Source: Escherichia coli (lineage in GTDB: Bacteria; Pseudomonadota; Gammaproteobacteria; Enterobacterales; Enterobacteriaceae). From it: 64,000 nt of DNA. The notes beneath the pieces are model-generated. The model did no database searches, was not told the DNA's origin, and saw nothing but the letters and a program-made list of their open reading frames with translations. The stretch is from NCBI RefSeq assembly GCF_030384885.1, contig NZ_CP128615.1, one strand, 5' to 3'. Shown here one piece after another: positions 6,326-32,046 of the stretch; within the stretch, counting starts at the first letter, position 1, and each line of letters opens with the position of its first letter. The position numbers were made by a program, and so were the translations under genes.

Positions 6326-8401
6326 TCAATTAACCCCAAGCGCCTTAAACACGGCATCGACGGGGTCTGCATAAAAGCTGATCTGGAATTTTGAGAACAA
6401 CTCAGCAGGAACCGTTGGAATATCTGAGGCTGAGGCCATTGGGAGCAAAATACGCTTTGCGCCACTGTCCATAGCTAACTGAAGACTGCCTGCAAGATCT
6501 TGAACAGGATTGACGACACCACCTAAAGTCATCTCACCCAAAACAACCATCTGCTCTTGAATCGGTCGGTTCATCAGAATTGAACAGAACGCAATTAATG
6601 CAGCGAGCGATGACTTTGTACTTGGCCCCGTATTGTGGAGCTCAACAACATGGAGGTGATACTCATGATCAGAAAACTTCGCCGACGCACTGATTCTATT
6701 CAGGTTACCTTTGAAATAATCAAAGCCAACACGCACAGCTTCTTTCGCTGCGGTATTCGAACCAAGGCCAGACACTGAGTGTTTACCAGAACCAGCCATC
6801 ATCTGGGTTTCATAGCGATATAACCCAAGCTGCCCAGTGCTTCCCTGAGTAACCAAGTGCACGACACCAGCGCGAGGTAAGCCCTCAGGAATTAGCTTGC
6901 TGCCACCTTGTTCCGGTACATTGATGAAGAATTCTTCTAATGAATCGTTATCGATGTAGCTAAAGTGCACATCAAAAAATTCCATTCCGCCAAGCTTTTT
7001 CAATTGCTCTTTGACTCTACGTCTAGTTTCCAGCGCATAGGTCAGGCAGGCTCTTACATCATCTTTTGTGTACTGTGCGTCGGGGTGTAGTAGCTTTAAC
7101 AAGCCCGAAACAGTTCTGCGTACAGCAATTACATCACGCTGATTAAGGTTATTACCGAGTTTGAAGAACTTATCGATAGCATCCGCAAAACTTCTTTTGC
7201 GCATTTCACGCATGTATTCAGCAAGATAGTCTGTGATTAATCCGTAACTATTGGTGAAAAACTCAGGACGCATCTTCGGTATTTCCCATCCAGGAATATA
7301 GGAATGGAAACGGTCAAAAAAAGCAGTGTCAATCATGGCTTCAGGAAAAGGTGCCAACAGATGACTGGTCTTCACCAGTGTCTCAACGCTTTGATTGATG
7401 TTACCGACGAATACCATGGAAGCCTTCGCTTCGATTGAATCACGACCACGGGCAAAAGACCCTGACGCCATATAATCTTTCATTATTTGGACGCCGTCTT
7501 TGTCTTTAAAGTTAATACCCGCTACTTCATCAAAGGCGACAACATCCCACATTCCGACCAACCCAACTTGGCGCGAGCTCATGTTATAGAACAAGTTCGC
7601 CACAGTTGTTTGTCCGCCCGAGACAAGCAATGAGTTTGGTGAGCACTCCTTGTAGACATGGCTTTTACCTGTCCCTCTTGGTCCGAGCTCACAAACGTTG
7701 TAGTTGTTTTCAACGAATGGGATCATACGAGTGATAAGATGCCATTTCACCCGATGCTCTAAGTTGGTTGGCTCCATACCCACGGAACGAAGCAACACAT
7801 CCATCCACTGATCGGTACTAAAATGTCTTCTGGTTGAAAACACCTCATCCATGTTCATGGACGGCATTTGTATCGGTTTTAAACTCATAATGGAGAAAGG
7901 TGATGTCTTCTGACCTTCCTCAAAGAAATACTGGACGGTAATAATGCACCAGATGCCGCCAGTTAATAATTTTTCGTTGTCTTGTACTATTTTGGTCGGT
8001 ACAAGGGCATCCTTGATACCCAGGTTCGACAACGCAGCTTCATAGACGTCTTTTTTCTGGTTGAGCTTAACGCTTACTTTGTCGATGATTTTAAACGTGC
8101 CGCGTTCACGGATCAGTGACTTCACTTTCTCCGCTTCATCTGGTCGGACATAGTTCTCAGCCAAGATTTTTTTTACATTATCAAGGCCTTGCATTACAAC
8201 TTCGTCGTCATCGGACGCACAATACATGCCTAGTAAATACTCAAGCACATAGACAGGGACGTTAGCGCCTTCTTTCAATTGCTTTGTCAGATCTTTTCGA
8301 ACGACACGGCCTTTAAAATATTGGTTGAGCAATGCGTCTAAATCGGCGCTTTGCATCTGATTTTTTTCGTCTTTATGATCTTGTGAAAAATCAGTTGTCA
8401 T
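6326..8401 (-). CDS. brxL: BREX BrxL (Lon-like protease domain protein)
   Basis: 691-aa ORF, last gene of the BREX operon; P-loop GPRGTGKSH and Lon-like C-terminus. Confidence 0.85.
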   Translation of the reverse strand: MTTDFSQDHKDEKNQMQSADLDALLNQYFKGRVVRKDLTKQLKEGANVPVYVLEYLLGMYCASDDDEVVMQGLDNVKKILAENYVRPDEAEKVKSLIRERGTFKIIDKVSVKLNQKKDVYEAALSNLGIKDALVPTKIVQDNEKLLTGGIWCIITVQYFFEEGQKTSPFSIMSLKPIQMPSMNMDEVFSTRRHFSTDQWMDVLLRSVGMEPTNLEHRVKWHLITRMIPFVENNYNVCELGPRGTGKSHVYKECSPNSLLVSGGQTTVANLFYNMSSRQVGLVGMWDVVAFDEVAGINFKDKDGVQIMKDYMASGSFARGRDSIEAKASMVFVGNINQSVETLVKTSHLLAPFPEAMIDTAFFDRFHSYIPGWEIPKMRPEFFTNSYGLITDYLAEYMREMRKRSFADAIDKFFKLGNNLNQRDVIAVRRTVSGLLKLLHPDAQYTKDDVRACLTYALETRRRVKEQLKKLGGMEFFDVHFSYIDNDSLEEFFINVPEQGGSKLIPEGLPRAGVVHLVTQGSTGQLGLYRYETQMMAGSGKHSVSGLGSNTAAKEAVRVGFDYFKGNLNRISASAKFSDHEYHLHVVELHNTGPSTKSSLAALIAFCSILMNRPIQEQMVVLGEMTLGGVVNPVQDLAGSLQLAMDSGAKRILLPMASASDIPTVPAELFSKFQISFYADPVDAVFKALGVN

Positions 8402-8417: not shown

Positions 8418-11090
8418 TTAGAAAAAATCATCTTGGAATGCCAAATCAATGGTTACCGCGTATTGGCTATAACGGGTTCTCATTTCCGCATTCTCAAGAA
8501 CTAATGTGTATTGAGCGTTTCTATCGAACTGGGAGCCAATAAGCTTTAACCTAGCTTCGCGAGTACGTTCATCCATCACTTTACTCACGCTATCAAAGTT
8601 AATCGTTTCACGACTGGAGACTTCATTACCTTGTGCATCGACGATATAGACATCCAACAACCGTGCGACGAAACGCTCGCCTACAGGGTCTGTCTGAATA
8701 AATCTGACCTTGTCGATATTGTTTACTAATTTGATGGGCTGAGTGGCTGCTACAACACCTACCGGTTGTTTCTCATGTTTTGCTGCTTGTTCTTTTTGTA
8801 GCTCTCGCACATGTAGTACCGGTACGCAGACTTCCTGTAGCATCGCTCCGCCATGCACAAACTTAGCACCACCAACGAAGTGGAAGCGTTGAGCCGCTTT
8901 TGGAAGCAGGAACTCGGTATCACTTGAGCCATGAGCCGTATCGTTAATTGAGCCTTTCCAACAGGCTTCATCTGAAGGCAAGTTATTACCAACGATATAA
9001 CGTTTCTTGGCTTCTATCGCTCCAGCAGGTTTGGTTTTCAACGAGGTTTTGTCAGCCGCTACAAGTGCTTTTTGTTGGAAGAGGAAGCCATGGTCAGCAG
9101 TGATCACAACTCGGCTGCCGTTTAGACGGTTGATGACCCGCCCAACGAGGTCTTTTAGCTCTTCAATGGCACTACGACAGGCTTCAAACGTTTTCTCTTC
9201 AGTTGCTGCCTTATCACCAATCGCATCAATGGTATCGTGATAGATATAAACGACTTCTACGTCTCGAACCTTGTCACGCCCCTCCTGGTTACTCCAGCTC
9301 ATCAGTTCCTTAGAACTCACTGCCATACCACCTACTTTTTGTAGGATGGCGTTGCGGTTGTCTAGACCCTGTGAAGAAATACCATCCACATAAACAGCCG
9401 TGCCTTGCTCTGGCTGGTAACTGAGCGCCTTATGAGGCAATAATGCCGCCATCCCAAGTTGGGTATAACTCGGCAAAACGCCCAACTGCGTAGACACCTC
9501 AGCCTTAAATCGCTTCTCGTTGTTAATGATAGCGCCAAGCTCATTCGCAATTTCAAAACGCAGGGCATCAGAGATGATCACAAACACTCGTTTTGTCTGT
9601 TTCAGACTCAGTCGTGTGCGAACTTCTTTTTCATAGAAGTCATACTGGTGCGGTACGCCAGAAATCTGCCACTTTTCAAGTAATTTTTCATTGGCCAAGT
9701 GACGATCCCATGCAAGGCCAAGCTCATACAAGTACCAGTTGGTATAAATGCTTTCGACTTCGTCGTCGAGCTGACGCAGTATGTCTGCACCTTTACTCAA
9801 TACAGAGTGCACATGCTCATTGAACAAACGGTAAGCCTGGTCAAAACGATAAATGTCTGTGGTATAGGCGTCGTACATTGCTTTCGCGTTATCAAAGTGG
9901 AACCCATCCACATAGCGATTTCGCAAGTGCATTAACTCTTCAGCGTTGCGGATAGCTTCATAAATTGCGAAGTATTCTTTGCGTGACAATGTCCAGTGGC
10001 TAGAAAGACGTCTTGATAAGACCGTATCAAACTGAACCCGGTCTAGCGCTTTACTGCTATCGAGCAAATCACGAACTAAACCACGGATTATGGCCTGTTC
10101 CACAGCTTCGAACGTTTCGCATTCGATAAGCTCAACCGGATGGTACTGCCCAGCACGAGTCGAAATTTCCAACTGTTGGCTAAGCACCTTAGAGATGCTT
10201 TCGTAGTAAGCGGCGAAAGAGCGGCTGTCGCGCCAGCTCACCATAAACGCCAAGGCTGTCGCCCGGCCTGATGCGCTTTTTAGAACATTGTTAAGCAACC
10301 AATCGCGTTCAACACCTTCAATTTGGCTCCAGAATTCAGTACAGAATAATTTCAACACGAAGTCTGAGAAGGTTGGCTCTTCAACTGTATAGCCAAAACC
10401 CTCACTCAGATATGCCCAGAGTGAGGTCTCAAGATCAAACTTTCCTAGCTGGCTCCATAAAGGTTGACCAAGGCTTTCATCTTCGATATAAGCCGCATAT
10501 TCGCGTAGTAACCCAAGCAGAATGTCCGACAAAGACGCAGAATCAGCTTTTACAACCACTGCCATCATCTTTCTGTCTAACGACAGTTCGTCTTCGTTCT
10601 CAGTCACCCACTTTTTTAAACCGGCTATGCGCTGTTTATTGGCAAAAAAGCTCTGGCGCTTACGAATGTGCGTGCGAAGCGCCATTTTCGGAATACCCAG
10701 CTCATTAAGCAGCATTGAGCTGTGATCAGCAAAAAACTGCTCGCTATACAAACGCACGTCTAGCAACCAATCGCGGTCAGGCTCTGGCTCAGCGCTTGGA
10801 AAATAGATAAGGAATTTAGCTTCACGCTCATCTACTTCAATGCGTTTTTTCACTGCCAATACAGACTCATTGCCCATATTGAGGATGGTCAAATCATTTG
10901 GAAGCACCCGTGCAGTTTTATCCGCCGATTTATCGTCTGTTTCTTTTGCAAGCCCTTCTTTTGCAATAGAGAGGGCGTTAGCTAAATGCTCAAGCTCTTC
11001 AGTAAAGCTTTGCTCTGGGTCGTACCAAAACACAATGCGGCTTTGTTCAAATTTGGCAGCAACGCCTTGTGCCAGTTCACTAATCTGCAT
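8418..11090 (-). CDS. pglZ: BREX PglZ (alkaline-phosphatase superfamily)
   Basis: 890-aa ORF between pglX and brxL; N-terminal VFWYDP motif; size and position typical of PglZ. Confidence 0.85.
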   Translation of the reverse strand: MQISELAQGVAAKFEQSRIVFWYDPEQSFTEELEHLANALSIAKEGLAKETDDKSADKTARVLPNDLTILNMGNESVLAVKKRIEVDEREAKFLIYFPSAEPEPDRDWLLDVRLYSEQFFADHSSMLLNELGIPKMALRTHIRKRQSFFANKQRIAGLKKWVTENEDELSLDRKMMAVVVKADSASLSDILLGLLREYAAYIEDESLGQPLWSQLGKFDLETSLWAYLSEGFGYTVEEPTFSDFVLKLFCTEFWSQIEGVERDWLLNNVLKSASGRATALAFMVSWRDSRSFAAYYESISKVLSQQLEISTRAGQYHPVELIECETFEAVEQAIIRGLVRDLLDSSKALDRVQFDTVLSRRLSSHWTLSRKEYFAIYEAIRNAEELMHLRNRYVDGFHFDNAKAMYDAYTTDIYRFDQAYRLFNEHVHSVLSKGADILRQLDDEVESIYTNWYLYELGLAWDRHLANEKLLEKWQISGVPHQYDFYEKEVRTRLSLKQTKRVFVIISDALRFEIANELGAIINNEKRFKAEVSTQLGVLPSYTQLGMAALLPHKALSYQPEQGTAVYVDGISSQGLDNRNAILQKVGGMAVSSKELMSWSNQEGRDKVRDVEVVYIYHDTIDAIGDKAATEEKTFEACRSAIEELKDLVGRVINRLNGSRVVITADHGFLFQQKALVAADKTSLKTKPAGAIEAKKRYIVGNNLPSDEACWKGSINDTAHGSSDTEFLLPKAAQRFHFVGGAKFVHGGAMLQEVCVPVLHVRELQKEQAAKHEKQPVGVVAATQPIKLVNNIDKVRFIQTDPVGERFVARLLDVYIVDAQGNEVSSRETINFDSVSKVMDERTREARLKLIGSQFDRNAQYTLVLENAEMRTRYSQYAVTIDLAFQDDFF

Positions 11091-14000
11091 TAGTTAACCT
11101 CCGGGGCCGAACCGGTAATGGCCTTAACATCAGCCAACAGATCACCAAACTTGCCGTAATTCACTTTCACGCCATCATCCAAATCCAGTGAAATACGCAT
11201 ATCAGCGTAGTGTTTTAGCTTGTCATCAAACTCGCGTAGTTCAACCTGTTTCTTGATTAAGGCATCCAACTCTTTCTTGAAGCGGTTCGCTTCACTGGTC
11301 GAGTCTGCCGTTTCAATCTGCTTCTCAAGCTGCTCTGCATAAGCATCGTATTTGCCGAGTAACGGGGTGACATACTCGGTACGCATACGCGAAAGCGTGC
11401 CCTCGTTGTAACGGTGCAGGTAAACCAGGCACTCAAAAGCCTTCTGTTTGCCTGAGCTAAACAACCAATAAATAGGACGTTTTTTGTATGTCTTCAGGTG
11501 GTCTTTGTAGAATTGAGTCGATAAATAGCGGCGGATCGTCTCAAGAGCTGATTCTGATTTTTTGGGCTTTATGGCATTTAAGCACAGAGACTCTGCAACA
11601 AAATCGAGATTTTCTTGTAAGTGTTCTTCACCCCAAACAACTTGGACAAACTCGCGGAAACGATTGGTTGCGTCGTCCTTGAACCATTCTTGGTCGGTTA
11701 GGGGAATGATGCCATTTTCGTCGGCAGCAAAAGATTGATAAGCACCTTCGGCAACGAGTTTATCAAACCCATAATTACAAGCATGAGCGTAGACTAAGCC
11801 TTCACGATCAAGAGAGTAACGCCCCATCATGCAACCAATGGAGTAACTAATGAGTTCACAGGTTGTATCAGATTTTAACTTACTTAAATCAGTAGAATTT
11901 TCATATCGAAAAGCAGGGTTAGCAAATAATGATAGTGTTGAAATATCTATTGAAACCGGCACCGAAATTCCAAAATCATTGCATATTAAAGAATTAACTT
12001 CACTTTCCAAATTGGCTTGTTCATTAACTAGATTTAACTTCACTTCATTTAGAACCTGATAAGATTCAGCAATTTTGGCACGTTTTATTTTACACAGAGG
12101 CGAACATTCAAAGTTCCATGACGTTTCGTACATATCCCAATCAACCTTTGCGTTGGAAATTAAATCGCTCACCTTTTCAAACAATGCTTCTTTGTCAGCC
12201 TTATTGAAAATTGCCGGCAATGAGGCTATTTGACTCGTTTCATAGTTAAGCGTTGGCGAAATGATTTTTAACTGTTCCAGCACTACAGATGAGTTTAACT
12301 GAGCCAATAAGGCATATTCTTCAATTCGAGAATTAAGAAATACTGATGCACCTGCAACGTCAAATATCGCTCCTTCAGGCTGCCATCTGAACGATGGAAT
12401 TCCACTCGAAATTTTTGACCAAGTTACTGAGCTACGAAAATAAAATGCACCATTTTTCACAGTTCTAGTAGGAGACCCATACAAACTTTTAGCGTATGCA
12501 AATACCTCTTCACCTGCATTTTCCCAATTAATTACGTATTCCTGATTGCCATACCATTTTCTATATGAACCGCCTTTATTATATGGAAACCATTTGAATC
12601 CTGAGGATTCAGCTTCATCTTTAGAACTAGAGTCATACATTGAGGTGTTTACTGGAACTTCATGCCATAGCCTTAAGAATCTATTATTATCACTTGTTTG
12701 ACACCCAACTCTAGTTTTAGCAACTGACGATATTGGCGCGTCCATAAATGTATTTAATATTTCCTTGGCAACCCAATAAGCAATCGGACTCCCAGGAATC
12801 TTTTTGAAATCATCCTGAGCTGTCGCTGCAAATTCATTCTCTCTATTGAGCAATGCTTTTTGCTTTTCTTCTTCATTGCCATCTATCAGCCTATAAAAGG
12901 TAGGTTGATAATGATTGATGTGCTTATTTTGAATAATCCAGGCAGTAGTCTGTACAACCTCGCCACTAATCTGACTAAAAGCGCGTGCACCGAGGTGAGC
13001 CATAGTAATAAATGTATGGTCTTCCAATAAATTGTTTCTTAGTTGCTCATAACTCGACAAGAACATCCACGATTGCATATTGATTTGAGCATTAAATCCA
13101 TATTGAGAAAGCAATTTAAATGCTCGCTCCATAAAAATGGCAAACAAGTCTGATTTACTATTTGGGTATTGTTTCTTAGCAAACTCTTTCAAATCTGCAT
13201 TCATTCCTTTTGCTCCCATATAGGGAGGATTAGCAATCACAGCATCGTAACGAATAGATAAAACCAAAGCCTGGTGAACAAACTCAATCAATTGCTTCGC
13301 TGCCAGCTTCTGCATTGAGTCGCCTGACTCTTGTAGCTCTACTAGCGTGCTCAGGAGCTCTTTTAGCTGTTCATGGTCATCGCTTGGTACATCAATCAAT
13401 GAACCAAAGGTCTTGGCTTGAGTAAATCTTGCCAACGTTCGCTTCAGCAGTTGGTAGCGGTTGTCTGCATTGAACGAGCTTAAATCTTGCTCTTCGTCAG
13501 AGAACAGTCCTTGTGATGTGCCGCTTTGCCAACTTCCCGATAGGTTGAGTGCTTTCCATAAGGTCGGCAGATCAATATGGTTACTTTCCTGCAATGACAG
13601 TACATTGAGTCGCACGTTACGGGTAAAAATACGCTTGTCGTCATCTCTCGCCATCATCATCAGGGCAAAGCCAGATAGCTGTGCTGCACGATCATCTATG
13701 TCCAAGCCGAAGAGGTTGTTCTCCAGGATCATCTTTGGAATGTCACGAGAGCGGAAACCACGTTCTTCGTAGATGGCTTTTAGTACGTTGTAAGCTTCAA
13801 TCAGTATGTGGCCCGAGCCACAAGCGGGATCGAGTACTTTGATGGTTTCAGGTTCAATCGATTCTGGCGTAATAGCCTTTAGCTGTTGGTTAACTTCGTC
13901 AGATTGCTGCGCAGGCTCAATGTAGTATTCCATCTGGCTTTTAATGGCAGAGTCTGGGTAGGTTTGCAGCCATTGACGACCGACTGAGTTTTGTACCAGG

Positions 14001-14758
14001 TACTTTACAATCCAGTTAGGTGTAAATAGCTGAGTAGCGGCAGGAATGTCTTCACTTTTGACTACTTTTCCGATGACCTGATCTTTCTTTTCAGAAATGT
14101 AGAATTGGTAAAGCCAACCAATCACTTCGACTTGTTGCCAGTCCTCTTCAGGGATGCCGTCTACCAATCCACGCAGAATGGAGTCGGTACGCATTAGGTT
14201 GTCTGGTAGCAGAAGCTCTGTTTCATCGTCCAATGCGTCAAATAAGAAAGGCATCGCTTCATGTAGCTTATGGCACTGGCCTAACAGCAGTTCACGATAC
14301 AGCTCTTCGTCTTTGTTGCCCGCAAGCTTGAGTTCAACAATGCGAGCTCTATCTAATCCGAGTTCATCCGCAGCGTCTTGGGCATGGTCGATAATTTCAA
14401 AGCCTTTAGGGTTGTCTGGGTGCGACAAAACACGAAAACCGTGGCCTAGATAGTCATGGATTTCCATATAGCGAATAGCACACAGACGGTTGAACCAGGT
14501 ATAAGCTACTTGTTCAATAAGTTGTGCATACCCAAGTTTCTGGCTTCTGGCTACTATGCGTTTTCTGGGCTCGGCCAGTTTACCGTCAAAACTGTTACCA
14601 GCGATTTGAAGCACAGAACCTTGTAGATTCGCTTCTGCAATTTGTAGCTCGCCCTTTTTATTCGCGGTGATACCAAAGGTATTTAATCGTTTAGCTACCG
14701 CATCCATAAATTCGCGGCGCGCTTTTGGTGCGTATTTTTTAATGTTGTTCGTATTCAT
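11090..14758 (-). CDS. pglX: BREX PglX N6-adenine DNA methyltransferase
   Basis: 1222-aa ORF; SAM motif LDPACGSGHIL and catalytic NPPY (ANPPYMGAKG). Confidence 0.9.
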   Translation of the reverse strand: MNTNNIKKYAPKARREFMDAVAKRLNTFGITANKKGELQIAEANLQGSVLQIAGNSFDGKLAEPRKRIVARSQKLGYAQLIEQVAYTWFNRLCAIRYMEIHDYLGHGFRVLSHPDNPKGFEIIDHAQDAADELGLDRARIVELKLAGNKDEELYRELLLGQCHKLHEAMPFLFDALDDETELLLPDNLMRTDSILRGLVDGIPEEDWQQVEVIGWLYQFYISEKKDQVIGKVVKSEDIPAATQLFTPNWIVKYLVQNSVGRQWLQTYPDSAIKSQMEYYIEPAQQSDEVNQQLKAITPESIEPETIKVLDPACGSGHILIEAYNVLKAIYEERGFRSRDIPKMILENNLFGLDIDDRAAQLSGFALMMMARDDDKRIFTRNVRLNVLSLQESNHIDLPTLWKALNLSGSWQSGTSQGLFSDEEQDLSSFNADNRYQLLKRTLARFTQAKTFGSLIDVPSDDHEQLKELLSTLVELQESGDSMQKLAAKQLIEFVHQALVLSIRYDAVIANPPYMGAKGMNADLKEFAKKQYPNSKSDLFAIFMERAFKLLSQYGFNAQINMQSWMFLSSYEQLRNNLLEDHTFITMAHLGARAFSQISGEVVQTTAWIIQNKHINHYQPTFYRLIDGNEEEKQKALLNRENEFAATAQDDFKKIPGSPIAYWVAKEILNTFMDAPISSVAKTRVGCQTSDNNRFLRLWHEVPVNTSMYDSSSKDEAESSGFKWFPYNKGGSYRKWYGNQEYVINWENAGEEVFAYAKSLYGSPTRTVKNGAFYFRSSVTWSKISSGIPSFRWQPEGAIFDVAGASVFLNSRIEEYALLAQLNSSVVLEQLKIISPTLNYETSQIASLPAIFNKADKEALFEKVSDLISNAKVDWDMYETSWNFECSPLCKIKRAKIAESYQVLNEVKLNLVNEQANLESEVNSLICNDFGISVPVSIDISTLSLFANPAFRYENSTDLSKLKSDTTCELISYSIGCMMGRYSLDREGLVYAHACNYGFDKLVAEGAYQSFAADENGIIPLTDQEWFKDDATNRFREFVQVVWGEEHLQENLDFVAESLCLNAIKPKKSESALETIRRYLSTQFYKDHLKTYKKRPIYWLFSSGKQKAFECLVYLHRYNEGTLSRMRTEYVTPLLGKYDAYAEQLEKQIETADSTSEANRFKKELDALIKKQVELREFDDKLKHYADMRISLDLDDGVKVNYGKFGDLLADVKAITGSAPEVN

Positions 14759-14773
14759 ATGATCTTGCGCCTC

Positions 14774-16537
14774 TTATTCTGTCTCTACGCTGTTTGCGGG
14801 TTGTAATGCGGTTCTAATGCGGGCAAGCAGTGTTTCCTGACGCTCGCGGTAAAAGTCCATAAACTGGTTTAGTTGTTCAGGTAATGATGTTATGGCTTGC
14901 GATTGCAGATGTGCTTGTCTTGCATTCACATCAGGCCACTGCTGCGCATACCATTCATGGGGCATTTTTTGCCGCTTCTGGTTGTTGATTGTCCCTTCCA
15001 ACAGTTGAAGGTTTGGCAGCTTGTTAGATGCCTCGATGAGTTCATCTAGCTGTTCAGCTGGGACACCAACTTTTGCAAGCTTGTTACGCGTAAACAAACC
15101 TTTGGGGTAAATGTGGTCCACATGAAAGTGTCGTGAAAAATCGAATCCTGGGAACAACAAAGTCAACAAGGCAAAGGTACGCGGATTACCATAATCCAAC
15201 TGCGCTAGTTCACTAATTTCCTCTGGGTCAAAGCGCAACGATTTACCACGCTGTTGCATGGTCGCTTCAATTTTCGCTAGCGGGAAACCCGTATCACCCG
15301 ATTGTTTAATGTCTGAGCGAAGCATAGTAAGCAGGGTATCCAAACCACTTCCCCAGATGCCTGACGCTTTCAACAACGACCTAATGAGCCAGTTTCTGAT
15401 GCATTCTCTATCGACCGCATATTCAACCCTAGAAAGGTAGCTTGCCGTTAACTTTCGGTGGTGCAGGTAATAGGCTAACGGGAGGATGGCACTTGTTGCT
15501 CTGAGGTTTTGTGCATTAAAACCAAAACTTGCCAGCAACTGCATTGAGAGCAATAACGCATCACGAATTGGCGTCCAGTTCTTTTCGAGAATCGCCATAT
15601 TTTCCTTGTTAAAGTTCTCAACCTTAAAGCCCACGCTACCGATGTCAGAGAGCATTAAGCCTGCTTTTAAAACGAGATCTTTTGATACGTTGAATCCATC
15701 ACCAACACGGTTCATCTCATCCACTAAGGCATGAATTTCTTCACGGGCATCTAACGAGCTCCACTGCGCTACGGCTATTGAAAGTAGTAAGTCTGAGTAG
15801 GACAAAGTAGTGCCGCCGCTATTCATGCGGATAAAGATATTCAGAACACGTTCAAGGCTCTGATCACTTTCTTCGTAAAACGAAATCTTATCTTTGTCAT
15901 GGATAGTTCGATACAAGTGACGAAGAGTTGAGCGAGCCTCTTTGCGTTGCTCCGAGCTCAACCTAGCATCATCAGCAACTTCATCGATAAGTGCATCTTC
16001 TTCCTCTTCCATGATCCGGCCTACACGGAACCAGTATTGTTCAGATGCATCCAAAGAGGCTTTATCGTCGGTTAGGAACTCAAAGTCATACATCGACCCA
16101 GTTTCTAAGTCGGGCTGGCTTAACAGATTTAAGTGAAGCCTGCGCACTGGGAAGGCGTCATCATTGCTCCACCATTTACCTGTCAGCTTCCACGCAAATG
16201 AGCCGCGTAGGCCGATGTTCAAAGCGGTAATCCGCTGCTGTCCATCTAGGACGGCAATGAACTCACGCTCTGGTAACTGAGTGACATTTTCACAATGGTA
16301 GTTATCTCGCTCATGGTAATGCTGCATGAACTGATAAAACTGATAGCTATGCCGGTTCTCTGGTTTTATCTTCCAGAATAGAAAGGTCCCAAACGGGTAA
16401 CCTTGCAACAGGCTATCAAATAGACGACAGATCTGTTCTGGTCGCCATACAAACTCTCGCTGGATGGCCGGTAACAGGTATTCCTGCTCAGCAACCTTGT
16501 CGAGTAATGATCTTATTGTTCCACCCGCTTGATACAT
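14774..16537 (-). CDS. GmrSD-family type IV restriction endonuclease (DUF262 + DUF1524; BrxU-like) embedded in BREX locus
   Basis: 587-aa ORF; N-terminal IQREFVW and DGQQR (DUF262/ParB-like) motifs, C-terminal HxxH-type HFHVDHIYPK (DUF1524 His-Me finger). Confidence 0.8.
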   Translation of the reverse strand: MYQAGGTIRSLLDKVAEQEYLLPAIQREFVWRPEQICRLFDSLLQGYPFGTFLFWKIKPENRHSYQFYQFMQHYHERDNYHCENVTQLPEREFIAVLDGQQRITALNIGLRGSFAWKLTGKWWSNDDAFPVRRLHLNLLSQPDLETGSMYDFEFLTDDKASLDASEQYWFRVGRIMEEEEDALIDEVADDARLSSEQRKEARSTLRHLYRTIHDKDKISFYEESDQSLERVLNIFIRMNSGGTTLSYSDLLLSIAVAQWSSLDAREEIHALVDEMNRVGDGFNVSKDLVLKAGLMLSDIGSVGFKVENFNKENMAILEKNWTPIRDALLLSMQLLASFGFNAQNLRATSAILPLAYYLHHRKLTASYLSRVEYAVDRECIRNWLIRSLLKASGIWGSGLDTLLTMLRSDIKQSGDTGFPLAKIEATMQQRGKSLRFDPEEISELAQLDYGNPRTFALLTLLFPGFDFSRHFHVDHIYPKGLFTRNKLAKVGVPAEQLDELIEASNKLPNLQLLEGTINNQKRQKMPHEWYAQQWPDVNARQAHLQSQAITSLPEQLNQFMDFYRERQETLLARIRTALQPANSVETE

Positions 16538-16553
16538 AGTTATCCGTTGCCTC

Positions 16554-19500
16554 TTACTTAATTCTTACTCGGTCGCCAGCTTTGACCGCAGCAATCAGCT
16601 GCTCTCTTAAAGCGGCAAGATAGGCATCAACTTCGGCTTCACTTTCAATGAATCCGGTTGTTACTGACTTAGCCATGGCATCGGTTGAGTTAATCGTTAC
16701 GGTACGTTTTGCAACCGGCTGTGGCTGCACTGGTTCAGAGGCTGGCTCAGGTGCTGGAGCTGCTTTACCGGCTTTCGCTGCTTCCTCTTCGCGTGTCTGC
16801 TGTTCGAGTTCACGACGTCTTTGCTCAGCTTCAGCTTTTTTGCGTTGATCTTCGATAAAGCCATTCAGCAACTCATAGGCTTCGTCCTCGTAACCTTCCG
16901 CTTCAGTTTGCTCACTGATAATTTGTGGTATTGAAGAGGTCGCTTCAATACGCTGTCTGCACATTTGTAACGGGCGCAGTGCTTGGTTCTGTAATTCAGA
17001 CGGTGCATGAGCTTCAGCTAGCGCTTCTTTTACACGTCCGATGCGCAGATCAACACGCTCTAAGGCATGAGTGCGTTTTTCTTCAACCAATGTTGAGTTA
17101 ATTTTTGCCACCTGCTCGATAAGCGGATTAATGTGGCGCAGCTGCTCATACGGCGAGGGCATATTGTAAATGCGTTCTAATTCAGTGAGCGCTTTTAATG
17201 CTTCACTGTCTTTTTCTAACGCAGGTCTATTGGCCTTAAACTTCTCGTTCAATGCGCCAGCAAGGGCTTGCCAAGTTTGAAATTGGCTATTGTAGAAGTC
17301 ATCAAGATCCTCAAAGTCCTCAGCAAACTCTTCAAGGGCATCAGCGTTTTCTAAGAATCGGGTGATAAGAGCGAAGCTTGAAGTTTGCTCAAGAATACCC
17401 GCGACCAATGCAAGACCATCGTCAATTTGAGATTTACCTGGGAAATGGCCTGTCTGTGACTTGGTTCTGAATGATTTAAGCTCTTCATTCCAAGCCAGTA
17501 ATTCATCGCGCACTAATTCGTAGAGCTCCTTTTCACCAGAGCCGGTAAAGGTTTTTGAAAAGATCTCTTTAACAAGACCAGCAGCCTTTTTGATTTGGCG
17601 CTCGTCATGTTGCCTGATTTTATGTACACGGATCTCACCGCGTTTACGCACGCTGGTAAACGGCTCGTAAGCTTTTTTCAACGCCAGATCTGTGCCCTGG
17701 GTACTAAAAGATAACTTTCCAGCCAAGCCCAGCCTTGCAGTGAGCAATAAGATTTCATTGTCTGGCCAGCCATACGGGCGCTTGCCGAAGTGGGCAACGA
17801 TGTCACGTAAGTAAACAGGCTCATTACGCTCGACTTTTAGCGTTACGTACTGCTCAACCTCACGCGTAGCTTCTGGGTTACATTCATCCGCTTGAAGATC
17901 CAGTCCAATCTGAGCAATATCATCAGCAACAAGTACGGCCTGTAGCTCACGCAAAACTTCACCAGGCGTCGCCTTGAGCATGTTCAATTTAGCGAAGGTG
18001 TTTTCGATAACGTATTTGTATGCTTCTTCGACGATGGCACTTGGCGTTGCTGATTTCTTCGGTAGTTTTGTGCCGATAGCGTAAACGTCAGCCTCTGCAA
18101 ACAAAGCTTCAAAATCCGTTCTTAAGCGTTTTTCACGCTCAATATTTTCCATCTGCTTTTCGCGGAGAAGGTGTTCTTGCTCTGGTCGCTGTCCTGAATT
18201 TTGTTTTAAGAATCGGTCAGTTTTTATAAAGGTTGTCAGGTCATCCCAAAGACGTTTATGTTCGCCCAGCTTGACGAGCACGCACCCATCAGCCTCAAGC
18301 GTATGATTGATGCAGGCTTGATCGTGGGAGTAATTTTCAAAGTGCGAATCCAAAGGTGAAATGACTTTAATGACTAGATCTTCCAGCGTGGTGCCATCTT
18401 TTGGATGACCATTGCAAAAACGGCTCACCGCAAAGTCTTGCTTATTAATCGGGTATCGATAGGCACGATTACCTTTCAAAATACCGTCAAATACGATTGC
18501 TGAAAGCTTGTTAGAGACCTCTGACATTTCAACGTCAGTGTGGCGGATCTCGTTTTCAATCTCTTTTTCTTCGTTGGTCAGGAAGATAAATTCATCACCA
18601 TTACGCGCAATCAGCAATTGGCGTTCAAGACGATTCAAGCTCTCTTCAATTTGTTTACGCAGCGCAATTTTATCTGCATCGATTCGATCAATTGACAGCG
18701 TCACAAGGTTGTCTAGTGTGCTTTTGACAACGTCCACATAACGGATCAAGAAAAGAGTTTTTAGAATCTTGCCATCGAATTCTGTTAAGGAATCCAACTC
18801 ACAGGCTTGGTCAATCGTTCGCTTAACCGCTGGCTCCAAAAAGCTTTCAATCGGTGCATAGAAACTGTAAAACGGGATTAACACATCAAGGCCAGAGTCC
18901 TTCATCTGTTTTGCAGCTGATTGGAAAGCATCAAGTAATGAACGCTCACCCATGGCTAAGTGCTTACCCGTCGCGCCTTTTGTTCGAATTGACTCAAACA
19001 CTTTTTGAACCAGCGTGTAGTGGTAAGGCACAAACGGATAGTTGTCCACGAAAGACGGAGCGTCGGTGTAGCCCTTTAGAGACGCAGTTGTCGTTTTATC
19101 AAATGTCAGCTGGTTACGAAGAATGTCGCCCTTTTCAGCAAACACATCGATGAGGTGTGTACGAGCTTCTTCCGTTTTGGACAACAAACGCTTTTGAATA
19201 ACTTCCGAGGTATTCGAGCTCGACAGCTGCAAGCGGGTACTAAAACGCCCTTGAATTTTAGAGAAGTCCTCGCCATCGCGCTTATCCATACCACCAATGG
19301 CAGCATCAATGTCTGCCTGAGAGGTAACAACGACCCAAGCTCTGCCACCACAATATGTGCCAAGATCTTCAGTAATGGTCTGAAGCTTCAACATCATTTG
19401 TGTGTTCTTACCGATAAACTGACCGACTTCATCGACTAAGAAAAGAAGGTTACGATCTCCAGTTCGATCTAAGTATTCATTAACCCACTTACAGAAGTTT

Positions 19501-20231
19501 CGGATATCTAGCGGGAAATTGTTTTCAACCTGTTCAACCCACGCTTTGGCAGACTCTAATGATTGCTCACTGGCATGAGCGAGTGCTTCTGAAAGTTCGT
19601 CTCGATAGAAGTCATAGGCGTCACGCTCCTTTTCCCAAGTTGATTGAGTCAACTCAGCAAATTTGTCCTTGAAAGACATGTATTGATTACGCTTATCAAG
19701 CTCGCGTTCTAAATGCGCAATGTGAGGAAAATCAGCGCAGTATCCTACACGCTCATTAAAGACTTTGAGGAAGACCTTAAGAATGGCATTTTCTCGGTCA
19801 TCCGTATTGGCTCGTGAATCGATGTTAAAAAGAATAACATCAGTGTCTTTGGTAACAGCGTTTTGGATATCGGCCAACAGCATGGCATCGTTGATTTTGT
19901 CTTTAAAAAACTCAAATGCTTGACGGCCTTGGCCATCCTTTTCGACAGACTTATTTTCGAGGAGGTAAGACAAAATTTTCAGGAAGTGAGACTTACCCGA
20001 ACCAAAGAAGCCAGAGATCCACACACCAATTTTTCCTGACATTGATGCGCCACTTTGCGTCACAGATGGAACGTAAGCCTCAAAGAAAGCGCGAAAATGT
20101 CGATCTAGCTCTCGGGTTACAACATACTCATCAAGTTCGACATACACACTGTCATTGTCTTTCTGTTCCGCTTTAACAACGCCGTTAATATCACGCGTCA
20201 ACTTCTTGGAAAAAATCTGTTCAATTTTCAT
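16554..20231 (-). CDS. brxC: BREX BrxC (large P-loop ATPase)
   Basis: 1225-aa ORF; Walker A GFFGSGKSH; position downstream of brxB. Confidence 0.9.
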   Translation of the reverse strand: MKIEQIFSKKLTRDINGVVKAEQKDNDSVYVELDEYVVTRELDRHFRAFFEAYVPSVTQSGASMSGKIGVWISGFFGSGKSHFLKILSYLLENKSVEKDGQGRQAFEFFKDKINDAMLLADIQNAVTKDTDVILFNIDSRANTDDRENAILKVFLKVFNERVGYCADFPHIAHLERELDKRNQYMSFKDKFAELTQSTWEKERDAYDFYRDELSEALAHASEQSLESAKAWVEQVENNFPLDIRNFCKWVNEYLDRTGDRNLLFLVDEVGQFIGKNTQMMLKLQTITEDLGTYCGGRAWVVVTSQADIDAAIGGMDKRDGEDFSKIQGRFSTRLQLSSSNTSEVIQKRLLSKTEEARTHLIDVFAEKGDILRNQLTFDKTTTASLKGYTDAPSFVDNYPFVPYHYTLVQKVFESIRTKGATGKHLAMGERSLLDAFQSAAKQMKDSGLDVLIPFYSFYAPIESFLEPAVKRTIDQACELDSLTEFDGKILKTLFLIRYVDVVKSTLDNLVTLSIDRIDADKIALRKQIEESLNRLERQLLIARNGDEFIFLTNEEKEIENEIRHTDVEMSEVSNKLSAIVFDGILKGNRAYRYPINKQDFAVSRFCNGHPKDGTTLEDLVIKVISPLDSHFENYSHDQACINHTLEADGCVLVKLGEHKRLWDDLTTFIKTDRFLKQNSGQRPEQEHLLREKQMENIEREKRLRTDFEALFAEADVYAIGTKLPKKSATPSAIVEEAYKYVIENTFAKLNMLKATPGEVLRELQAVLVADDIAQIGLDLQADECNPEATREVEQYVTLKVERNEPVYLRDIVAHFGKRPYGWPDNEILLLTARLGLAGKLSFSTQGTDLALKKAYEPFTSVRKRGEIRVHKIRQHDERQIKKAAGLVKEIFSKTFTGSGEKELYELVRDELLAWNEELKSFRTKSQTGHFPGKSQIDDGLALVAGILEQTSSFALITRFLENADALEEFAEDFEDLDDFYNSQFQTWQALAGALNEKFKANRPALEKDSEALKALTELERIYNMPSPYEQLRHINPLIEQVAKINSTLVEEKRTHALERVDLRIGRVKEALAEAHAPSELQNQALRPLQMCRQRIEATSSIPQIISEQTEAEGYEDEAYELLNGFIEDQRKKAEAEQRRRELEQQTREEEAAKAGKAAPAPEPASEPVQPQPVAKRTVTINSTDAMAKSVTTGFIESEAEVDAYLAALREQLIAAVKAGDRVRIK

Positions 20232-20249
20232 TCGGGAGGCTCCCTGCTC

Positions 20250-20843
20250 TTAATTTTTTTTACCGTCTTCAGGCACAAGCTTGAAGGCGCGATAGTAGTT
20301 TTTAGATTCGATCATGCCGAAAGGATGCAAATCCCTTCCGCTATATTCACCCGGATAGAAAAGCACTAATGGCGTGCTACCCATAACGTCTTGCAGAGCA
20401 CTAAGTAACTCATGTCCTCGGATAAGAGGCCACGCACTGCCTAAGCCTGACAGCAACACAAACTCAAGTTCTGATGGCTTATATTTGTCCGCGATATACC
20501 TTGCCACTTTCTCTTGGCTCAGAGGCCCGGCTAGTGTTTTTCGAAGGCCATCAACACCGACTTGCAATTCACGCTGGCAAGCTCGGTCGAAAAGGCCTCG
20601 CTCCTCAAGCATATCTATCAAGACTTCAAAAATATTGAGATGGACAAAGCGGTAACCACGCTTGTTGAGTTTTTCGTCAACGTGCTTAATGTGCTCTCGT
20701 ACAAGCAGTTCATACTTGGCTGGATAGTCAAATACCCAAAATCCAATTTCATTGCCCAAGCCATCGTTTTTCAAAAACTTAGGGCTTTCAATTCGTTCCA
20801 GTATCAGATCAAGCCTGGTCTGAAGAGCCTTCATATTGTGCAC
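20250..20843 (-). CDS. brxB: BREX BrxB (DUF1788)
   Basis: 197-aa ORF immediately upstream of brxC, overlapping brxA; size and position typical. Confidence 0.8.
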   Translation of the reverse strand: MHNMKALQTRLDLILERIESPKFLKNDGLGNEIGFWVFDYPAKYELLVREHIKHVDEKLNKRGYRFVHLNIFEVLIDMLEERGLFDRACQRELQVGVDGLRKTLAGPLSQEKVARYIADKYKPSELEFVLLSGLGSAWPLIRGHELLSALQDVMGSTPLVLFYPGEYSGRDLHPFGMIESKNYYRAFKLVPEDGKKN

Positions 20844-21430
20844 TCCATTACCTCAATCAAATCTTCCCGGCCCAGACGAACTAACCAGTCTTTAACTTCT
20901 GGCATTAGGTAAACAGGTTGTATTTTCTTTGTCCTGCTATCACTCAGGTAGCCACTATCAACCAGTGCCTTAATTGCGTTGTTACCCATTTTTTTGACAG
21001 TTGAGTCAGAAAAACCGCCAAGCTCAGCATATGCCCGCACTCTCGTGTCATAAAACTCAGACCATGCATCAGCGGTTAAAGAGGGTTTATAGGTGCGACG
21101 AGCTTCGGCTAAGGTAAGTCGCATAAAATAAGCGACAACCGGAGAATGAATGAGTAATGACATCATCAGCATTTGGACATAGGCACGTTCACTCGCGGCT
21201 AAAAGATCAGTCATAAACTCATCACCCAGGCCTTCAATACGCCAACGGATTGTTCTGGCATAACGAATAGCCGTCTGACCGGATTTTTTCTGAAGAACAT
21301 TTTGCTCAACGATCAGCGACTTCCACTCATCTTCTGGAAGTTTTTTCAATAGCGATTCTGCGATTATTCTAGATTCAGTTATCAATAAACTGCCTCCGAT
21401 AAGATCGCCTAAATATTCTTTTATATTCAT
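20831..21430 (-). CDS. brxA: BREX BrxA (DUF1819)
   Basis: 199-aa ORF first structural gene of operon; size and position typical. Confidence 0.8.
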   Translation of the reverse strand: MNIKEYLGDLIGGSLLITESRIIAESLLKKLPEDEWKSLIVEQNVLQKKSGQTAIRYARTIRWRIEGLGDEFMTDLLAASERAYVQMLMMSLLIHSPVVAYFMRLTLAEARRTYKPSLTADAWSEFYDTRVRAYAELGGFSDSTVKKMGNNAIKALVDSGYLSDSRTKKIQPVYLMPEVKDWLVRLGREDLIEVMECTI

Positions 21431-21439
21431 AAATTCATC

Positions 21440-22366
21440 TCACGATTCGCTATATCCAGGAGCGAGTGCAGCATTGTCAACGCCGTATAGTGCTTCTGGA
21501 TTTTTAAGTGCTAAATGGAACTCTCGCCCATTGCTCTTACAATTCTTTGAACAATCGATATTCCATAAACGCAGTAAATATCCAGCGAACGCAGCTCTTA
21601 TCTCTACACGCAACCTATTGTTTTCCATTGCGTAGTCCATCGATACAGCTTCTGGATGTGCTAGTTTTGGATGAGGTATCAGCTCTAGCTCAACGATTCG
21701 GTTCCATTGCTTATCCCACTGAAGAGTCTCAACTTCGTCGTTAACCTCATCCTCTAACAACTCAACTTCACTTATTCTGGTTAAAACAAAATCCCTAAAT
21801 TCTCTAAGCTTTCTATCGAATGCTCGGACATGCCATCTCAAGCCATTGTCAATCAGGGTATGAGGAACTATTTGCCTGCTCCCATGACCACTCGACAATG
21901 AGGTGTACTCAATATTAATCACAGCGCGCTTATGTATGGCTTCACTAATAGCCGCTACAACTTCCAATTTCGGCTTATTGAGATGGAATGGTGCTTCACA
22001 AGCCATAGGTGGCCTGGCCTTGCCAAGAAAGCCATCACCGAACCCTTGGCTTATCGTCGCAAGAGTTCGAACAACGTCATAATCAAACAACGGCTGGAAT
22101 GCGCTCGTCTTCAAGTGCACTCTGCGCTTTTCGTCATACATAACGTTGTTAGGAGCCAACTCTTTGTACCGCGCAAAATCTTGTGTTGCCACAGACGGCG
22201 CTACGCTAAATCGCTCGGTTAAATAACTACGCCCAGCTTCACCTTTAAATAACAAAGTGAAATCAATATGAGCGAGTCGTTCTCTCTGTGCTTGGCTAAG
22301 CTCTTCAAGTCCAGTGTTGTCTTGCACTGTCAGCCTCTCAATCCATCTGGGACAAGCCCTAATCAT
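21440..22366 (-). CDS. brxR: BrxR-type WYL-domain transcriptional regulator
   Basis: 308-aa ORF upstream of brxA; WYL-like core (RWHVRAFDRKLREFRDF); true start may be an internal Met. Confidence 0.75.
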   Translation of the reverse strand: MIRACPRWIERLTVQDNTGLEELSQAQRERLAHIDFTLLFKGEAGRSYLTERFSVAPSVATQDFARYKELAPNNVMYDEKRRVHLKTSAFQPLFDYDVVRTLATISQGFGDGFLGKARPPMACEAPFHLNKPKLEVVAAISEAIHKRAVINIEYTSLSSGHGSRQIVPHTLIDNGLRWHVRAFDRKLREFRDFVLTRISEVELLEDEVNDEVETLQWDKQWNRIVELELIPHPKLAHPEAVSMDYAMENNRLRVEIRAAFAGYLLRLWNIDCSKNCKSNGREFHLALKNPEALYGVDNAALAPGYSES

Positions 22367-22685
22367 TTAAAACTAGGAAGCCATCGATTGAATGCCATCA
22401 AGCAACCTACTTTTTTTCATTAGGTATCATAGTATCAACAAGTCGTCTTGTTGGCTATAAAAATTGGCTTGACGTTGTTCGAATGTTTCTTTTCTGGCCT
22501 TGATAGAAGCTCACGCTGGAATGCCAACTGACGCAATTCATTCTCTCGAACACGCCTAGCAACTTCTGCCTGGGCTGGTAGCTGATCTTGACCCTCCATC
22601 TCCGAACAGCTTTTGTATCTTAAGTTAACGATGTCCGCTGCCGCCGGTATTCCCTCGGGGAGTGATATCCCAGCGCGCTGTGCGG

Positions 22686-22961
22686 GTGGCTTCCATTTCC
22701 ATCAGATGTCCTTCCTGCTCCGCTACTGAAGGCGTGGTGCGTAACGGCAAAAGCACTGCCGGACATCAGCGCTATCTCTGCTCTCACTGCCGTAAAACAT
22801 GGCAACTACAGTTCACTTACACCGCCTCTCAGCCCGGTACGCACCAGAAAATCATTGATATGGCCATGAATGGCGTTGGATGCCGGGCAACCGCCCGCAT
22901 TATGGGCGTTGGCCTCAACACGATTTTACGTCACTTAAAAAACTCAGACCGCAGTCGGTAA
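22686..22961 (+). CDS. insA: IS1 InsA
   Basis: [37 protein letters not shown]...; GTG start; the ORF-track Met at 22662 lies outside IS1. Confidence 0.85.
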
Positions 22962-23383
22962 CCTCACGCATACAACCGGGCAGTGACGTCATTGTTTGCG
23001 CGGAAATGGACGAACAGTGGGGTTATGTCGGCGCTAAATCACGCCAGCGCTGGTTGTTTTACGCGTATGACAGGATACGGAGGACGGTTGTGGCGCACGT
23101 ATTCGGTGAACGCACGTTGTCCACGCTGGAGCGTCTTCTGGGCCTGCTGTCGGCCTTTGAGGTCGTGGTATGGATGACGGATGGCTGGCCGCTTTATGAA
23201 TCACGCCTGAAGGGAGAACTGCACGTTATCAGCAAGCGATATAAGCAGCGCATTGAGCGGCATAACCTGAATCTGAGGCAGCATCTGTCAAGGCTGGGCA
23301 GGAAGTCACTGTCGTTCTCAAAATCGGTGGCGCTGCATGACAAAGTCATCGGGCATTATCTGAACATAAAACACTATCAGTAA
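22880..23383 (+). CDS. insB: IS1 InsB (expressed as InsAB fusion by frameshifting)
   Basis: 167-aa [29 protein letters not shown]... Confidence 0.85.
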
Positions 23384-23590
23384 GTTGGAGTCATTACCTT
23401 CTTTGCCGCCGGACATTGTCCGGCGCAACACCAAACCGGTCTGGCGGGCTGAGCCAATCCCGCAGGCAAATTCAGCCCTTACCGGATGGCTCAGCCCCCT
23501 ACTCATTGGAATTGGATATTCAACTTTCAGGGGCTACTGCGCCAGACTTCAGTCTTTAAAGTGATTGACTTAGCGCCTGGCACACTCAAT

Positions 23591-23902
23591 TTATTTAGGT
23601 AGCGGGCCTAATTGCACCCCATCAGGATAATACTTCCAGCCATCGCGAATTTTGACATTTTCATCCCACGGAAGTTTGTATTCGCCATTGGCAAGATCGC
23701 GCACCCAGGTCAGGTAATTCTCGCGTTCGCCTCCCGGTTTGCCGACATAGCCCCGGCAGCCAAGGTTGAAAATATTGTTTTCCAACGCCCAGTTTTCACG
23801 CGCTTTATCCACCAGGCGCGGGAACAGCTCTGCGGTAACAATTTCCCATGGGTTGCGGTGCCCCTGCTGAATGACGTTACCGTCATAATTGCAGACCGTA
23901 CC
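23591..23902 (-). pseudogene. 3' fragment of an unidentified gene, N-terminally truncated by IS903
   Basis: C-terminal ORF ...[58 protein letters not shown] abuts the IS903 IR at 23903. Confidence 0.4.
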
Positions 23903-24959
23903 GGCTTTGTTGAATAAATCGAACTTTTGCTGAGTTGAAGGATCAGATCACGCATCCTCCCGACAACACAGACCATTCCGTGGCAAAGCAAAAGTTCAGA
24001 ATCACCAACTGGTCCACCTACAACAAAGCTCTCATCAACCGTGGCTCCCTCACTTTCTGGCTGGATGATGGGGCGATTCAGGCCTGGTATGAGTCGGCAA
24101 CGCCTTCATCACGGGGAAGGCCCCAGCGCTATTCTGACCTTGCCATCACGACTGTGCTGGTCATTAAACGCGTATTCAGGCTGACCCTGCGCGCTGCGCA
24201 GGGCTTTATTGATTCCATTTTTACACTGATGAATGTTCCGTTGCGCTGCCCGGATTACAGCTGTGTCAGCAGGCGGGCAAAGTCGGTTAACGTCAGTTTC
24301 AAAACGTTCACCCGGGGTGAAATCGCGCATCTGGTGATTGATTCCACCGGGCTGAAGGTCTTTGGTGAAGGCGAGTGGAAAGTCAAAAAGCATGGCCAGG
24401 AACGCCGTCGTATATGGCGAAAGTTGCATCTGGCAGTTGACAGCAACACACATGAAATCATCTGTGCAGACCTGTCGCTGAACAATGTGACGGACTCAGA
24501 AGCCTTCCCGGGTCTTATCCGGCAGACTCACAGAAAAATCAGGGCAGCATCGGCAGACGGCGCTTACGACACCCGGCTCTGTCACGATGAACTGCGGCGT
24601 AAGAAAATCAGCGCGCTTATCCCTCCCCGAAAAGGTGCGGGTTACTGGCCCGGTGAATATGCAGACCGTAACCGTGCAGTGGCTAATCAGCGAATGACCG
24701 GGAGTAATGCGCGGTGGAAATGGACAACAGATTACAACCGTCGCTCGATAGCGGAAACGGCGATGTACCGGGTAAAACAGCTGTTCGGGGGTTCACTGAC
24801 GCTGCGTGACTACGATGGTCAGGTTGCGGAGGCTATGGCCCTGGTACGAGCGCTGAACAAAATGACGAAAGCAGGTATGCCTGAAAGCGTGCGTATTGCC
24901 TGAAAACACAACCCGCTACGGGGGAGACTTACCCGAAATCTGATTTATTCAACAAAGCC
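23903..24959 (+). mobile_element. IS903-like (IS5 family) copy 1, 1057 bp, intact
   Basis: 18-bp IRs GGCTTTGTTGAATAAATC at both ends; no 9-bp target duplication. Confidence 0.9.
23935..24903 (+). CDS. IS903-like DDE transposase
   Basis: 322-aa ORF ...[28 protein letters not shown]... Confidence 0.9.
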
Positions 24960-25112
24960 AGATGGAATAGCCCCGCTCGGTGATTTGGCGGACAGCTTCT
25001 TCCTTAAATTCAGGGGTAAAACGTGGTGTGCCCATAGACTATGACCTGCTCCCCGTTGATTAGTACACCCCGATGTTAGTAATGTCTTCATAAGCCACAT
25101 GAGGACATCCCC

Positions 25113-25376
25113 ATGAAGAAGCGTTTTTCCGACGAACAGATCATCAGTATTCTCCGCGAAGCCGAAGCTGGGGTACCCGCCCGTGAACTCTGCCGCAAGC
25201 ATGCCATTTCCGATGCCACGTTTTACACCTGGCGTAAGAAGTATGGCGGTATGGAGGTGCCTGAAGTTAAGCGCCTGAAGTCGCTTGAGGAAGAGAACGC
25301 CAGACTCAAGAAGCTGCTTGCCGAAGCCATGCTGGATAAAGAGGCGCTTCAGGTGGCTCTTGGGCGAAAGTACTGA
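25113..25376 (+). CDS. IS3-family transposase OrfA
   Basis: 87-aa ORF MKKRFSDEQIISILREAEAGVPARELCRKHAISDATFYTWRKKYGG... Confidence 0.85.
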   Translation: MKKRFSDEQIISILREAEAGVPARELCRKHAISDATFYTWRKKYGGMEVPEVKRLKSLEEENARLKKLLAEAMLDKEALQVALGRKY

Positions 25377-25399
25377 CGACAGACCAGAAGCGGGAAGCC

Positions 25400-25624: not shown

Positions 25625-25873
25625 TGATGCGGACTACGACGTGCGTTTGGTCCAGGACTGCTGCTACGACCCGGATCGGGATGCCCACGAAGCTCTGTTG
25701 CGTTCCGGGTTCGGCGGACGTGTACAGGTCGTGTAATTTTCGGGCCTCGCATGATCGCGGCCATAGCCGCAGGTGGATTGGTGCGAGGCAGGGCCAGTCC
25801 AAGTCAGGGTGCGGTCATCGCGGCGCCTGCAACTCTCAAAAACCCATCGCCGTAGCGGAGGTCTTGTAATCGC

Positions 25874-32043: not shown

Positions 32044-32046
32044 GTG

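Follow-up and report, generated by a model that had tools for sequence, protein, structure and literature searches.

The 587-residue open reading frame (ORF) lying between brxC and pglX in a plasmid-borne type 1 BREX island of Escherichia coli is almost certainly brxU, representing a natural allele of an enzyme already described, BrxU, whose mechanism would carry over to it by near-identity. We analysed a window of 64,000 nucleotides (contig NZ_CP128615.1 of assembly GCF_030384885.1), in which the ORF is intact and begins with ATG; its coordinates are exactly those of a first-pass annotation made from the sequence alone, which gave no strand (Table 1). The finding is real yet already explained, as BrxU is a published enzyme: for a protein 99.5% identical to the window product, the literature provides a crystal structure and a biochemical mechanism, and both the range of phages targeted and an inhibitor from phage are established. 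RefSeq labels the gene 'DUF262 domain-containing protein'; its annotation should read brxU. What our analysis adds is only the constancy of BrxU against a variable PglX recognition module.

Domain content and identity with BrxU of pEFER

Three motifs had led the first-pass annotation to a GmrSD/BrxU-type modification-dependent nuclease, and all are present in the translation: IQREFVW (residues 25-31), DGQQR (98-102) and HFHVDHIYPK (470-479, with DHIYP inside at 474-478). RLFDS (38-42) is additional to these. The profile search proposed there for DUF262 and DUF1524, when run, placed both domains of the GmrSD family in one polypeptide, with PF03235 strong and PF07510 marginal by HMM (E-values in Table 1). 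Pfam alone is weak for the C-terminal domain, which we assign as a DUF1524 HNH domain because of the crystal structure of the near-identical protein, with which the window product agrees at every residue of that domain. The PADLOC model HEC-05 (PDLC04151) matched the full-length product (E = 6.4e-234), and a PDB sequence search aligned residues 1-587 to residues 1-587 of 7P9K (E = 0); scores of the GmrSD_N, HEC-05 and 7P9K matches are far above chance. An NCBIfam search with the product found no family model, and thus no curated name there.

The alignment to BrxU that had also been proposed gave 584 of 587 identical residues (99.5%) over the full length of the crystallised BrxU of the Escherichia fergusonii plasmid pEFER (PDB 7P9K/7P9M), which bears out the GmrSD/BrxU-type assignment. 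The three differences from pEFER are H63D, Q141K and N582S, the window having H63, Q141 and N582. These are natural polymorphisms common to other plasmid copies: across the eight islands sampled, residue 63 is H in 4/8 and D in 4/8, residue 141 is Q in 6/8 and K in 2/8, and residue 582 is N in 5/8 and S in 3/8. The window protein keeps each of the 12 residues that the BrxU study mutated, namely D98 and Q100 of DGQQR together with Q35, R38, S42, Q101, R102, D474, H475, N485, N519 and E528. Nothing was found in the sequence that speaks against the BrxU identity.

The brxU coding sequence of pEFER (NC_011743.1) spans 18711-20474 and likewise encodes 587 aa with RLFDS, DGQQR and DHIYP, in the slot between brxC (15017-18694) and pglX (20490-24143). 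Both islands are headed by BrxR and sit on an IncR-type multiresistance plasmid backbone. They differ in the middle region of PglX, including its target-recognition domain, and upstream of brxR, where pEFER has brxS and brxT and the window has IS1 instead.

Among related families, HEC-05 of PADLOC is the same protein as BrxU. It was put forward as a candidate by Payne et al., and the homologue tested is 99.2% identical to BrxU and active in defence (bioRxiv 10.1101/2024.01.29.577857); the genes used to define the family lie within Hma systems, whereas the host system of the window gene is BREX. Like BrxU, GmrSD (Eco94GmrSD, EcoCTGmrSD), the founding type IV family, combines DUF262 with DUF1524, cleaves glucosyl-hmC and hmC DNA in an NTP-dependent manner and is inhibited by T4 IPI*, but the two share only ~13% sequence identity (PMC8565348). 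GmrSD lacks the RLFDS motif (bioRxiv 10.1101/2024.01.29.577857), and BrxU has a broader nucleotide and metal range and cuts 5mC as well (PMC8565348). SspE of the Ssp system resembles BrxU in its N-terminal DUF262 domain, DUF1524-type C-terminal nuclease and intertwined dimer (bioRxiv 10.1101/2024.01.29.577857), but it senses phosphorothioate, a host modification, nicks DNA, has another quaternary structure and shows no full-length similarity to BrxU; the PADLOC SspE match to the window product was weak and covered residues 18-107 only (E = 3.4e-5).

Table 1 Features of the brxU gene, the BREX island and its surroundings in the 64,000-nucleotide window.
Feature	Position	Strand	Description and basis
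brxU	14774-16537	minus	GmrSD-family type IV (modification-dependent) restriction enzyme; annotated WP_061350061.1 in identical plasmids
DUF262/GmrSD_N domain of brxU	15779-16513	minus	Nucleotide binding and hydrolysis, aa 9-253; Pfam PF03235, E = 8.3e-34
RLFDS motif	16412-16426	minus	Within DUF262/GmrSD_N domain
DGQQR motif	16232-16246	minus	Within DUF262/GmrSD_N domain
DUF1524/GmrSD_C core of brxU	14906-15139	minus	HNH (His-Me finger) nuclease core, aa 467-544; Pfam PF07510, weak, E = 0.013
DHIYP motif	15104-15118	minus	Within GmrSD_C core
brxR	21440-22366	minus	WYL-domain repressor of the island; PADLOC WYL, E = 7e-18; 96.8% to pEFER BrxR
brxA (DUF1819)	20831-21430	minus	Annotation of identical record; 97.0% to pEFER
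brxB (DUF1788)	20250-20834	minus	Annotation of identical record; 98.5% to pEFER
brxC	16554-20231	minus	BREX P-loop ATPase, upstream neighbour of brxU; PADLOC BrxC, E = 0; 98.7% to pEFER
pglX	11090-14758	minus	BREX-1 N6-adenine methyltransferase, downstream neighbour of brxU; NCBIfam NF033452, 1528 bits against a cut-off of 500
pglZ	8418-11090	minus	BREX-1 phosphatase, type A; annotation of identical record; 98.3% to pEFER
brxL	6326-8401	minus	Lon-related BREX protein; 99.7% to pEFER
brxC-brxU junction	16538-16553	minus	16 nt, TAA GAGGCAACGGATAACT ATG; Shine-Dalgarno directly after the brxC stop codon
brxU-pglX junction	14759-14773	minus	15 nt, TAA GAGGCGCAAGATCAT ATG; same start as the upstream junction (stop codon and GAGGC)
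Predicted BrxR operator region	22378-22447	minus	Counterpart of pEFER 12801-12870 (EMSA probe with BrxR-binding inverted repeats R-BOX1, downstream of PbrxR); 3 mismatches
vapBC	2862-3505		ORFs and annotation of near-identical plasmid NZ_CP123330.1
IS110 copy	4847-5923		Inserted in an IS3 remnant; ORFs and NZ_CP123330.1 annotation
IS903	23935-24903		ORFs and NZ_CP123330.1 annotation
tet(A)	about 26790-27989		ORFs and NZ_CP123330.1 annotation
TnAs1 transposase	29077-32043		ORFs and NZ_CP123330.1 annotation
Second Tn3-family transposase	35913-38798		ORFs and NZ_CP123330.1 annotation

Position in the BREX operon and predicted expression

On the minus strand the genes run in the order WYL/BrxR, BrxA, BrxB, BrxC, BrxU, PglX, PglZ and BrxL, which is a complete type 1 BREX system, with all six ORFs intact, plus one extra gene. 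The RefSeq annotation of an identical record agrees, as does the first-pass description, which placed the enzyme within a type 1 BREX operon having a BrxR-type WYL regulator upstream. The same gene order and junctions occur in pEFER and six further plasmids. Collinearity with pEFER begins at window position 22582, 216 bp upstream of brxR, and extends to 6032, 294 bp beyond brxL, at ~97% DNA identity except in the middle of pglX. Within pglZ, a patch at 10917-10964 (residues 43-58) differs from pEFER by a 5-residue indel (AKEGL) and five substitutions within 16 residues, and the remainder of PglZ is ~99% identical.

Together with the BREX genes, brxU is probably transcribed from the promoter that BrxR represses upstream of brxR, because the 15-16-nt gaps on either side carry Shine-Dalgarno sequences and a crude consensus scan found no promoter- or terminator-like site on the minus strand between brxC, brxU and pglX. 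The scan, which found nothing specific to brxU, carries little weight, as promoter-like sites were fewer than in shuffled sequences. The best minus-strand terminator-like hairpin follows brxL, at 6118-6099. BrxR represses PbrxR and PbrxA (PMC9122601). We located the counterpart of the R-BOX1 probe from the coordinates in PMC9122601 and an ungapped alignment of window 22582-22301 to pEFER 12666-12947 (97.2% identity); the three mismatches in this predicted operator region (22378-22447) weaken the inverted repeat.

Both brxU junctions are conserved in six other islands; the brxU-pglX junction is identical there, and the brxC-brxU spacer shows one A/G difference. The same 8-mer, TAAGAGGC, opens both junctions (14759-14776 and 16538-16556) and consists of the stop codon of the upstream gene and the Shine-Dalgarno sequence. 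It could be a trace of cassette insertion or merely reflect convergent ribosome-binding sites. A role for TAAGAGGC as a cassette boundary or recombination site was considered and is unsupported, since a stop codon followed by a Shine-Dalgarno sequence may recur by chance or convergence. GC content gave no sign that brxU is foreign: at 44-48% the gene resembles its neighbours, so its insertion would be old or from a similar source.

Distribution of the island and of BrxU homologues

DNA of the region around brxU (window 14000-17500) was found at 100% identity in four E. coli plasmids and as close copies in 66 PLSDB plasmids from Escherichia, Salmonella, Klebsiella, Moellerella, Raoultella and Enterobacter. 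Close copies also occur in 53 of 5,426 complete E. coli genomes, where 16 places are chromosomal. A search for an 'empty site', that is, the same BREX without brxU, returned three plasmids matching only the 3' end of pglX, which are IS5-truncated remnants holding pglZ and brxL only.

By tblastn, plasmid BrxU homologues form a tight group of at least 99% identity (60 records), followed by a gap down to 59%; homologues below 60% account for 332 records, most of them from Klebsiella, a genus that supplies 264 of the 395 matching records. The three more distant homologues that we inspected lie outside BREX. A 59% homologue from Raoultella (locus L006, 9001-10734) stands alone beside Ter/VWA genes, a 50% homologue from Phaeobacter (locus L007, 9001-10743) is also alone, and a 35% homologue from Klebsiella (locus L008, 8989-10854) lies directly upstream of a type I restriction-modification system. 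These positions fit the proposal in the literature of an autonomous module able to reside in different host systems (bioRxiv 10.1101/2024.01.29.577857). BrxU homologues are commonly embedded in BREX: of the known defence systems lying between BREX genes, they represent 15.98% (PMC11341690).

Exchange of the PglX recognition module

PglX is 73.7% identical to its pEFER counterpart overall, and the divergence is confined to the middle of the protein: residues 1-500 and 1040-1222 are 96-100% identical, while residues ~500-990 (window 11789-13261, minus strand) are only 24-56% identical. The sole compositional anomaly coincides with this pglX middle, GC content falling to 37% at 11700-13200 against ~46% around it. 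In Salmonella PglX numbering (PMC11341690), the stretch covers residues 591-600, a specificity loop of the methyltransferase domain, as well as the target-recognition domain at 662-849 and the spacer helices at 850-960. The BREX motif of the window PglX therefore probably differs from the GCTAAT of pEFER.

Across the eight sampled islands we found eight mutually different PglX middle regions (36-59% pairwise identity), whereas BrxU was 98.8-100% identical and the C-terminal 200 residues of PglX were 97.5-100% identical. The N-terminal parts of PglX were 96.7-98.8% identical in seven of the islands, with the Moellerella copy at ~85%. Among 69 PLSDB plasmids, 2 matched the window pglX over at least 80% of its length. 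The island thus exchanges its BREX specificity module with BrxU fixed, a pattern that fits a BrxU blind to adenine methylation in any motif. That PglX is variable is known in general terms (PMC11341690). Going further, we tentatively suggest, as a possibility we rate below even chances, that the island may serve as a platform of repeated PglX module exchange in which BrxU, tolerant of any BREX N6mA motif, is kept as a specificity-independent partner and the window PglX has a motif not yet described.

Mechanism and alternative readings

The mechanism was shown for the 99.5%-identical pEFER protein. That BrxU is an intertwined dimer with an occluded nucleotide site, which ATP binding converts to monomers; Q101 and R102 are required for hydrolysis, S42 governs the dimer-monomer switch, and cleavage depends on cycles of dissociation and re-association (PMC8565348). 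Cleavage of 5mC, 5hmC and glucosyl-5hmC DNA needs a hydrolysable nucleotide, preferably ATP, together with a metal ion, for which Mg2+, Mn2+ and some others serve (PMC8565348). Residues D474 and H475 make up the HNH nuclease site, and D474A and H475A abolish both cleavage and defence (PMC8565348). Substrates are ranked glc-5hmC > 5mC > 5hmC, and the T4 protein IPI* is inhibitory (PMC12409352); arabinosylated cytosines are also substrates (PMC13390438). Published work on BrxU thus already answers the checks put forward in the first-pass annotation.

Given 99.5% identity, the window allele would be expected to share the ATP- and Mg-dependent cleavage and the dimer-to-monomer switch. It would rest as an intertwined homodimer with the nucleotide site of its N-terminal DUF262 domain blocked, and binding of ATP, or less well of other NTPs or dNTPs, would dissociate it into monomers, with the DGQQR motif supporting hydrolysis. 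With Mg2+ or Mn2+ it would then degrade DNA with modified cytosines, glucosyl-5hmC before 5mC before 5hmC, and arabinosylated DNA too. T-even-like phages, whose hypermodified DNA escapes BREX, would be restricted by BrxU, and unmodified phages would be dealt with by BREX via PglX N6-adenine methylation, the two layers acting independently. A multiresistance plasmid would accordingly carry two complementary anti-phage layers, a known principle with a bearing on phage therapy wherever strains of E. coli, Salmonella or Klebsiella hold such plasmids.

In ordinary E. coli hosts, CCWGG is methylated by Dcm. Dcm appears in the BrxU paper solely in the reference list, and BrxU cuts fully 5mC-substituted DNA in vitro with no toxicity reported even on over-expression (PMC8565348). 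The first-pass annotation had reasoned that the enzyme would have to tolerate PglX methylation, and this agrees with published data: BrxU acts on modified cytosines, and strains with the island bear the BREX N6mA mark unharmed, so N6mA is not recognised by BrxU (PMC8565348).

That annotation had also raised the idea of a separate hitch-hiker into BREX, GmrSD-like and distinct from BrxU, on the grounds that the gene sits between brxC and pglX and that its product is shorter than BrxU. No tool lent this any support, and its only basis was a view of BrxU as longer and located elsewhere, which is incorrect on both points; the pEFER BrxU itself has 587 aa and occupies the identical slot (PMC8565348), and both intergenic junctions are alike in all sampled islands. 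With 584/587 identity, the same length and the same slot, we rejected an enzyme apart from BrxU and give it virtually no credence. Scarcely less improbable is that BrxU works as a functional subunit of BREX, either required by it or reliant on it, and not as a second, autonomous defence. Its tight embedding with 15-16-nt gaps and its near-invariant co-occurrence with this BREX lineage on plasmids would fit such a role, but published deletions show mutual independence: BREX remains functional when brxU is removed, as does BrxU when pglX is removed, and pBAD-driven expression of BrxU by itself suffices for phage defence (PMC8565348). The 59%, 50% and 35% homologues outside BREX, alone or beside a type I restriction-modification system, argue in the same direction.

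Slightly more room, though still very little, is left for the gene being brxU by descent while its allele is inactive, shifted in substrate by H63, Q141 and N582, or poorly expressed without brxS and brxT. Activity was shown for close relatives of this allele, the pEFER protein and the HEC-05 homologue 99.2% identical to BrxU; position 63 lies within the DUF262 domain between RLFDS and DGQQR, and the sequence is unlike pEFER beyond 216 bp upstream of brxR. Against this, the ORF is intact with all catalytic and mechanistic residues tested in BrxU conserved, the three variant residues occur in 4/8, 6/8 and 5/8 natural islands, the region of PbrxR and R-BOX1 is kept, and 100% conservation of the allele in at least four E. 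coli plasmids argues against decay. We therefore retain an active, autonomous BrxU as the preferred reading. The genes brxS and brxT are missing or truncated in the window because pEFER homology stops 216 bp upstream of brxR at IS1. Both have been called necessary for BREX host methylation (PMC9122601), and their loss could affect BREX but should not affect BrxU.

Surroundings of the island

The IS1 element (transposase 22687-23384) abuts the island where pEFER homology stops, at 22582. The island is set in a mosaic of mobile and resistance DNA, which in the window occupies 2862-3505, 4041-5923 and 23935-38798 (Table 1). Some 4 kb separate the BREX island from a two-gene Gabija-like pair (3-1565 and 1550-2572, both on the plus strand), which is a third defence module on this plasmid segment. 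The pair comprises a GajA-type ATPase of 520 aa, matched over its full length by PADLOC GajA (E = 1.5e-101), and a short GajB-like protein of 340 aa (PADLOC, E = 1.7e-47). Two plasmids with an identical island (L001 and L004) have other genes where the window has this pair.
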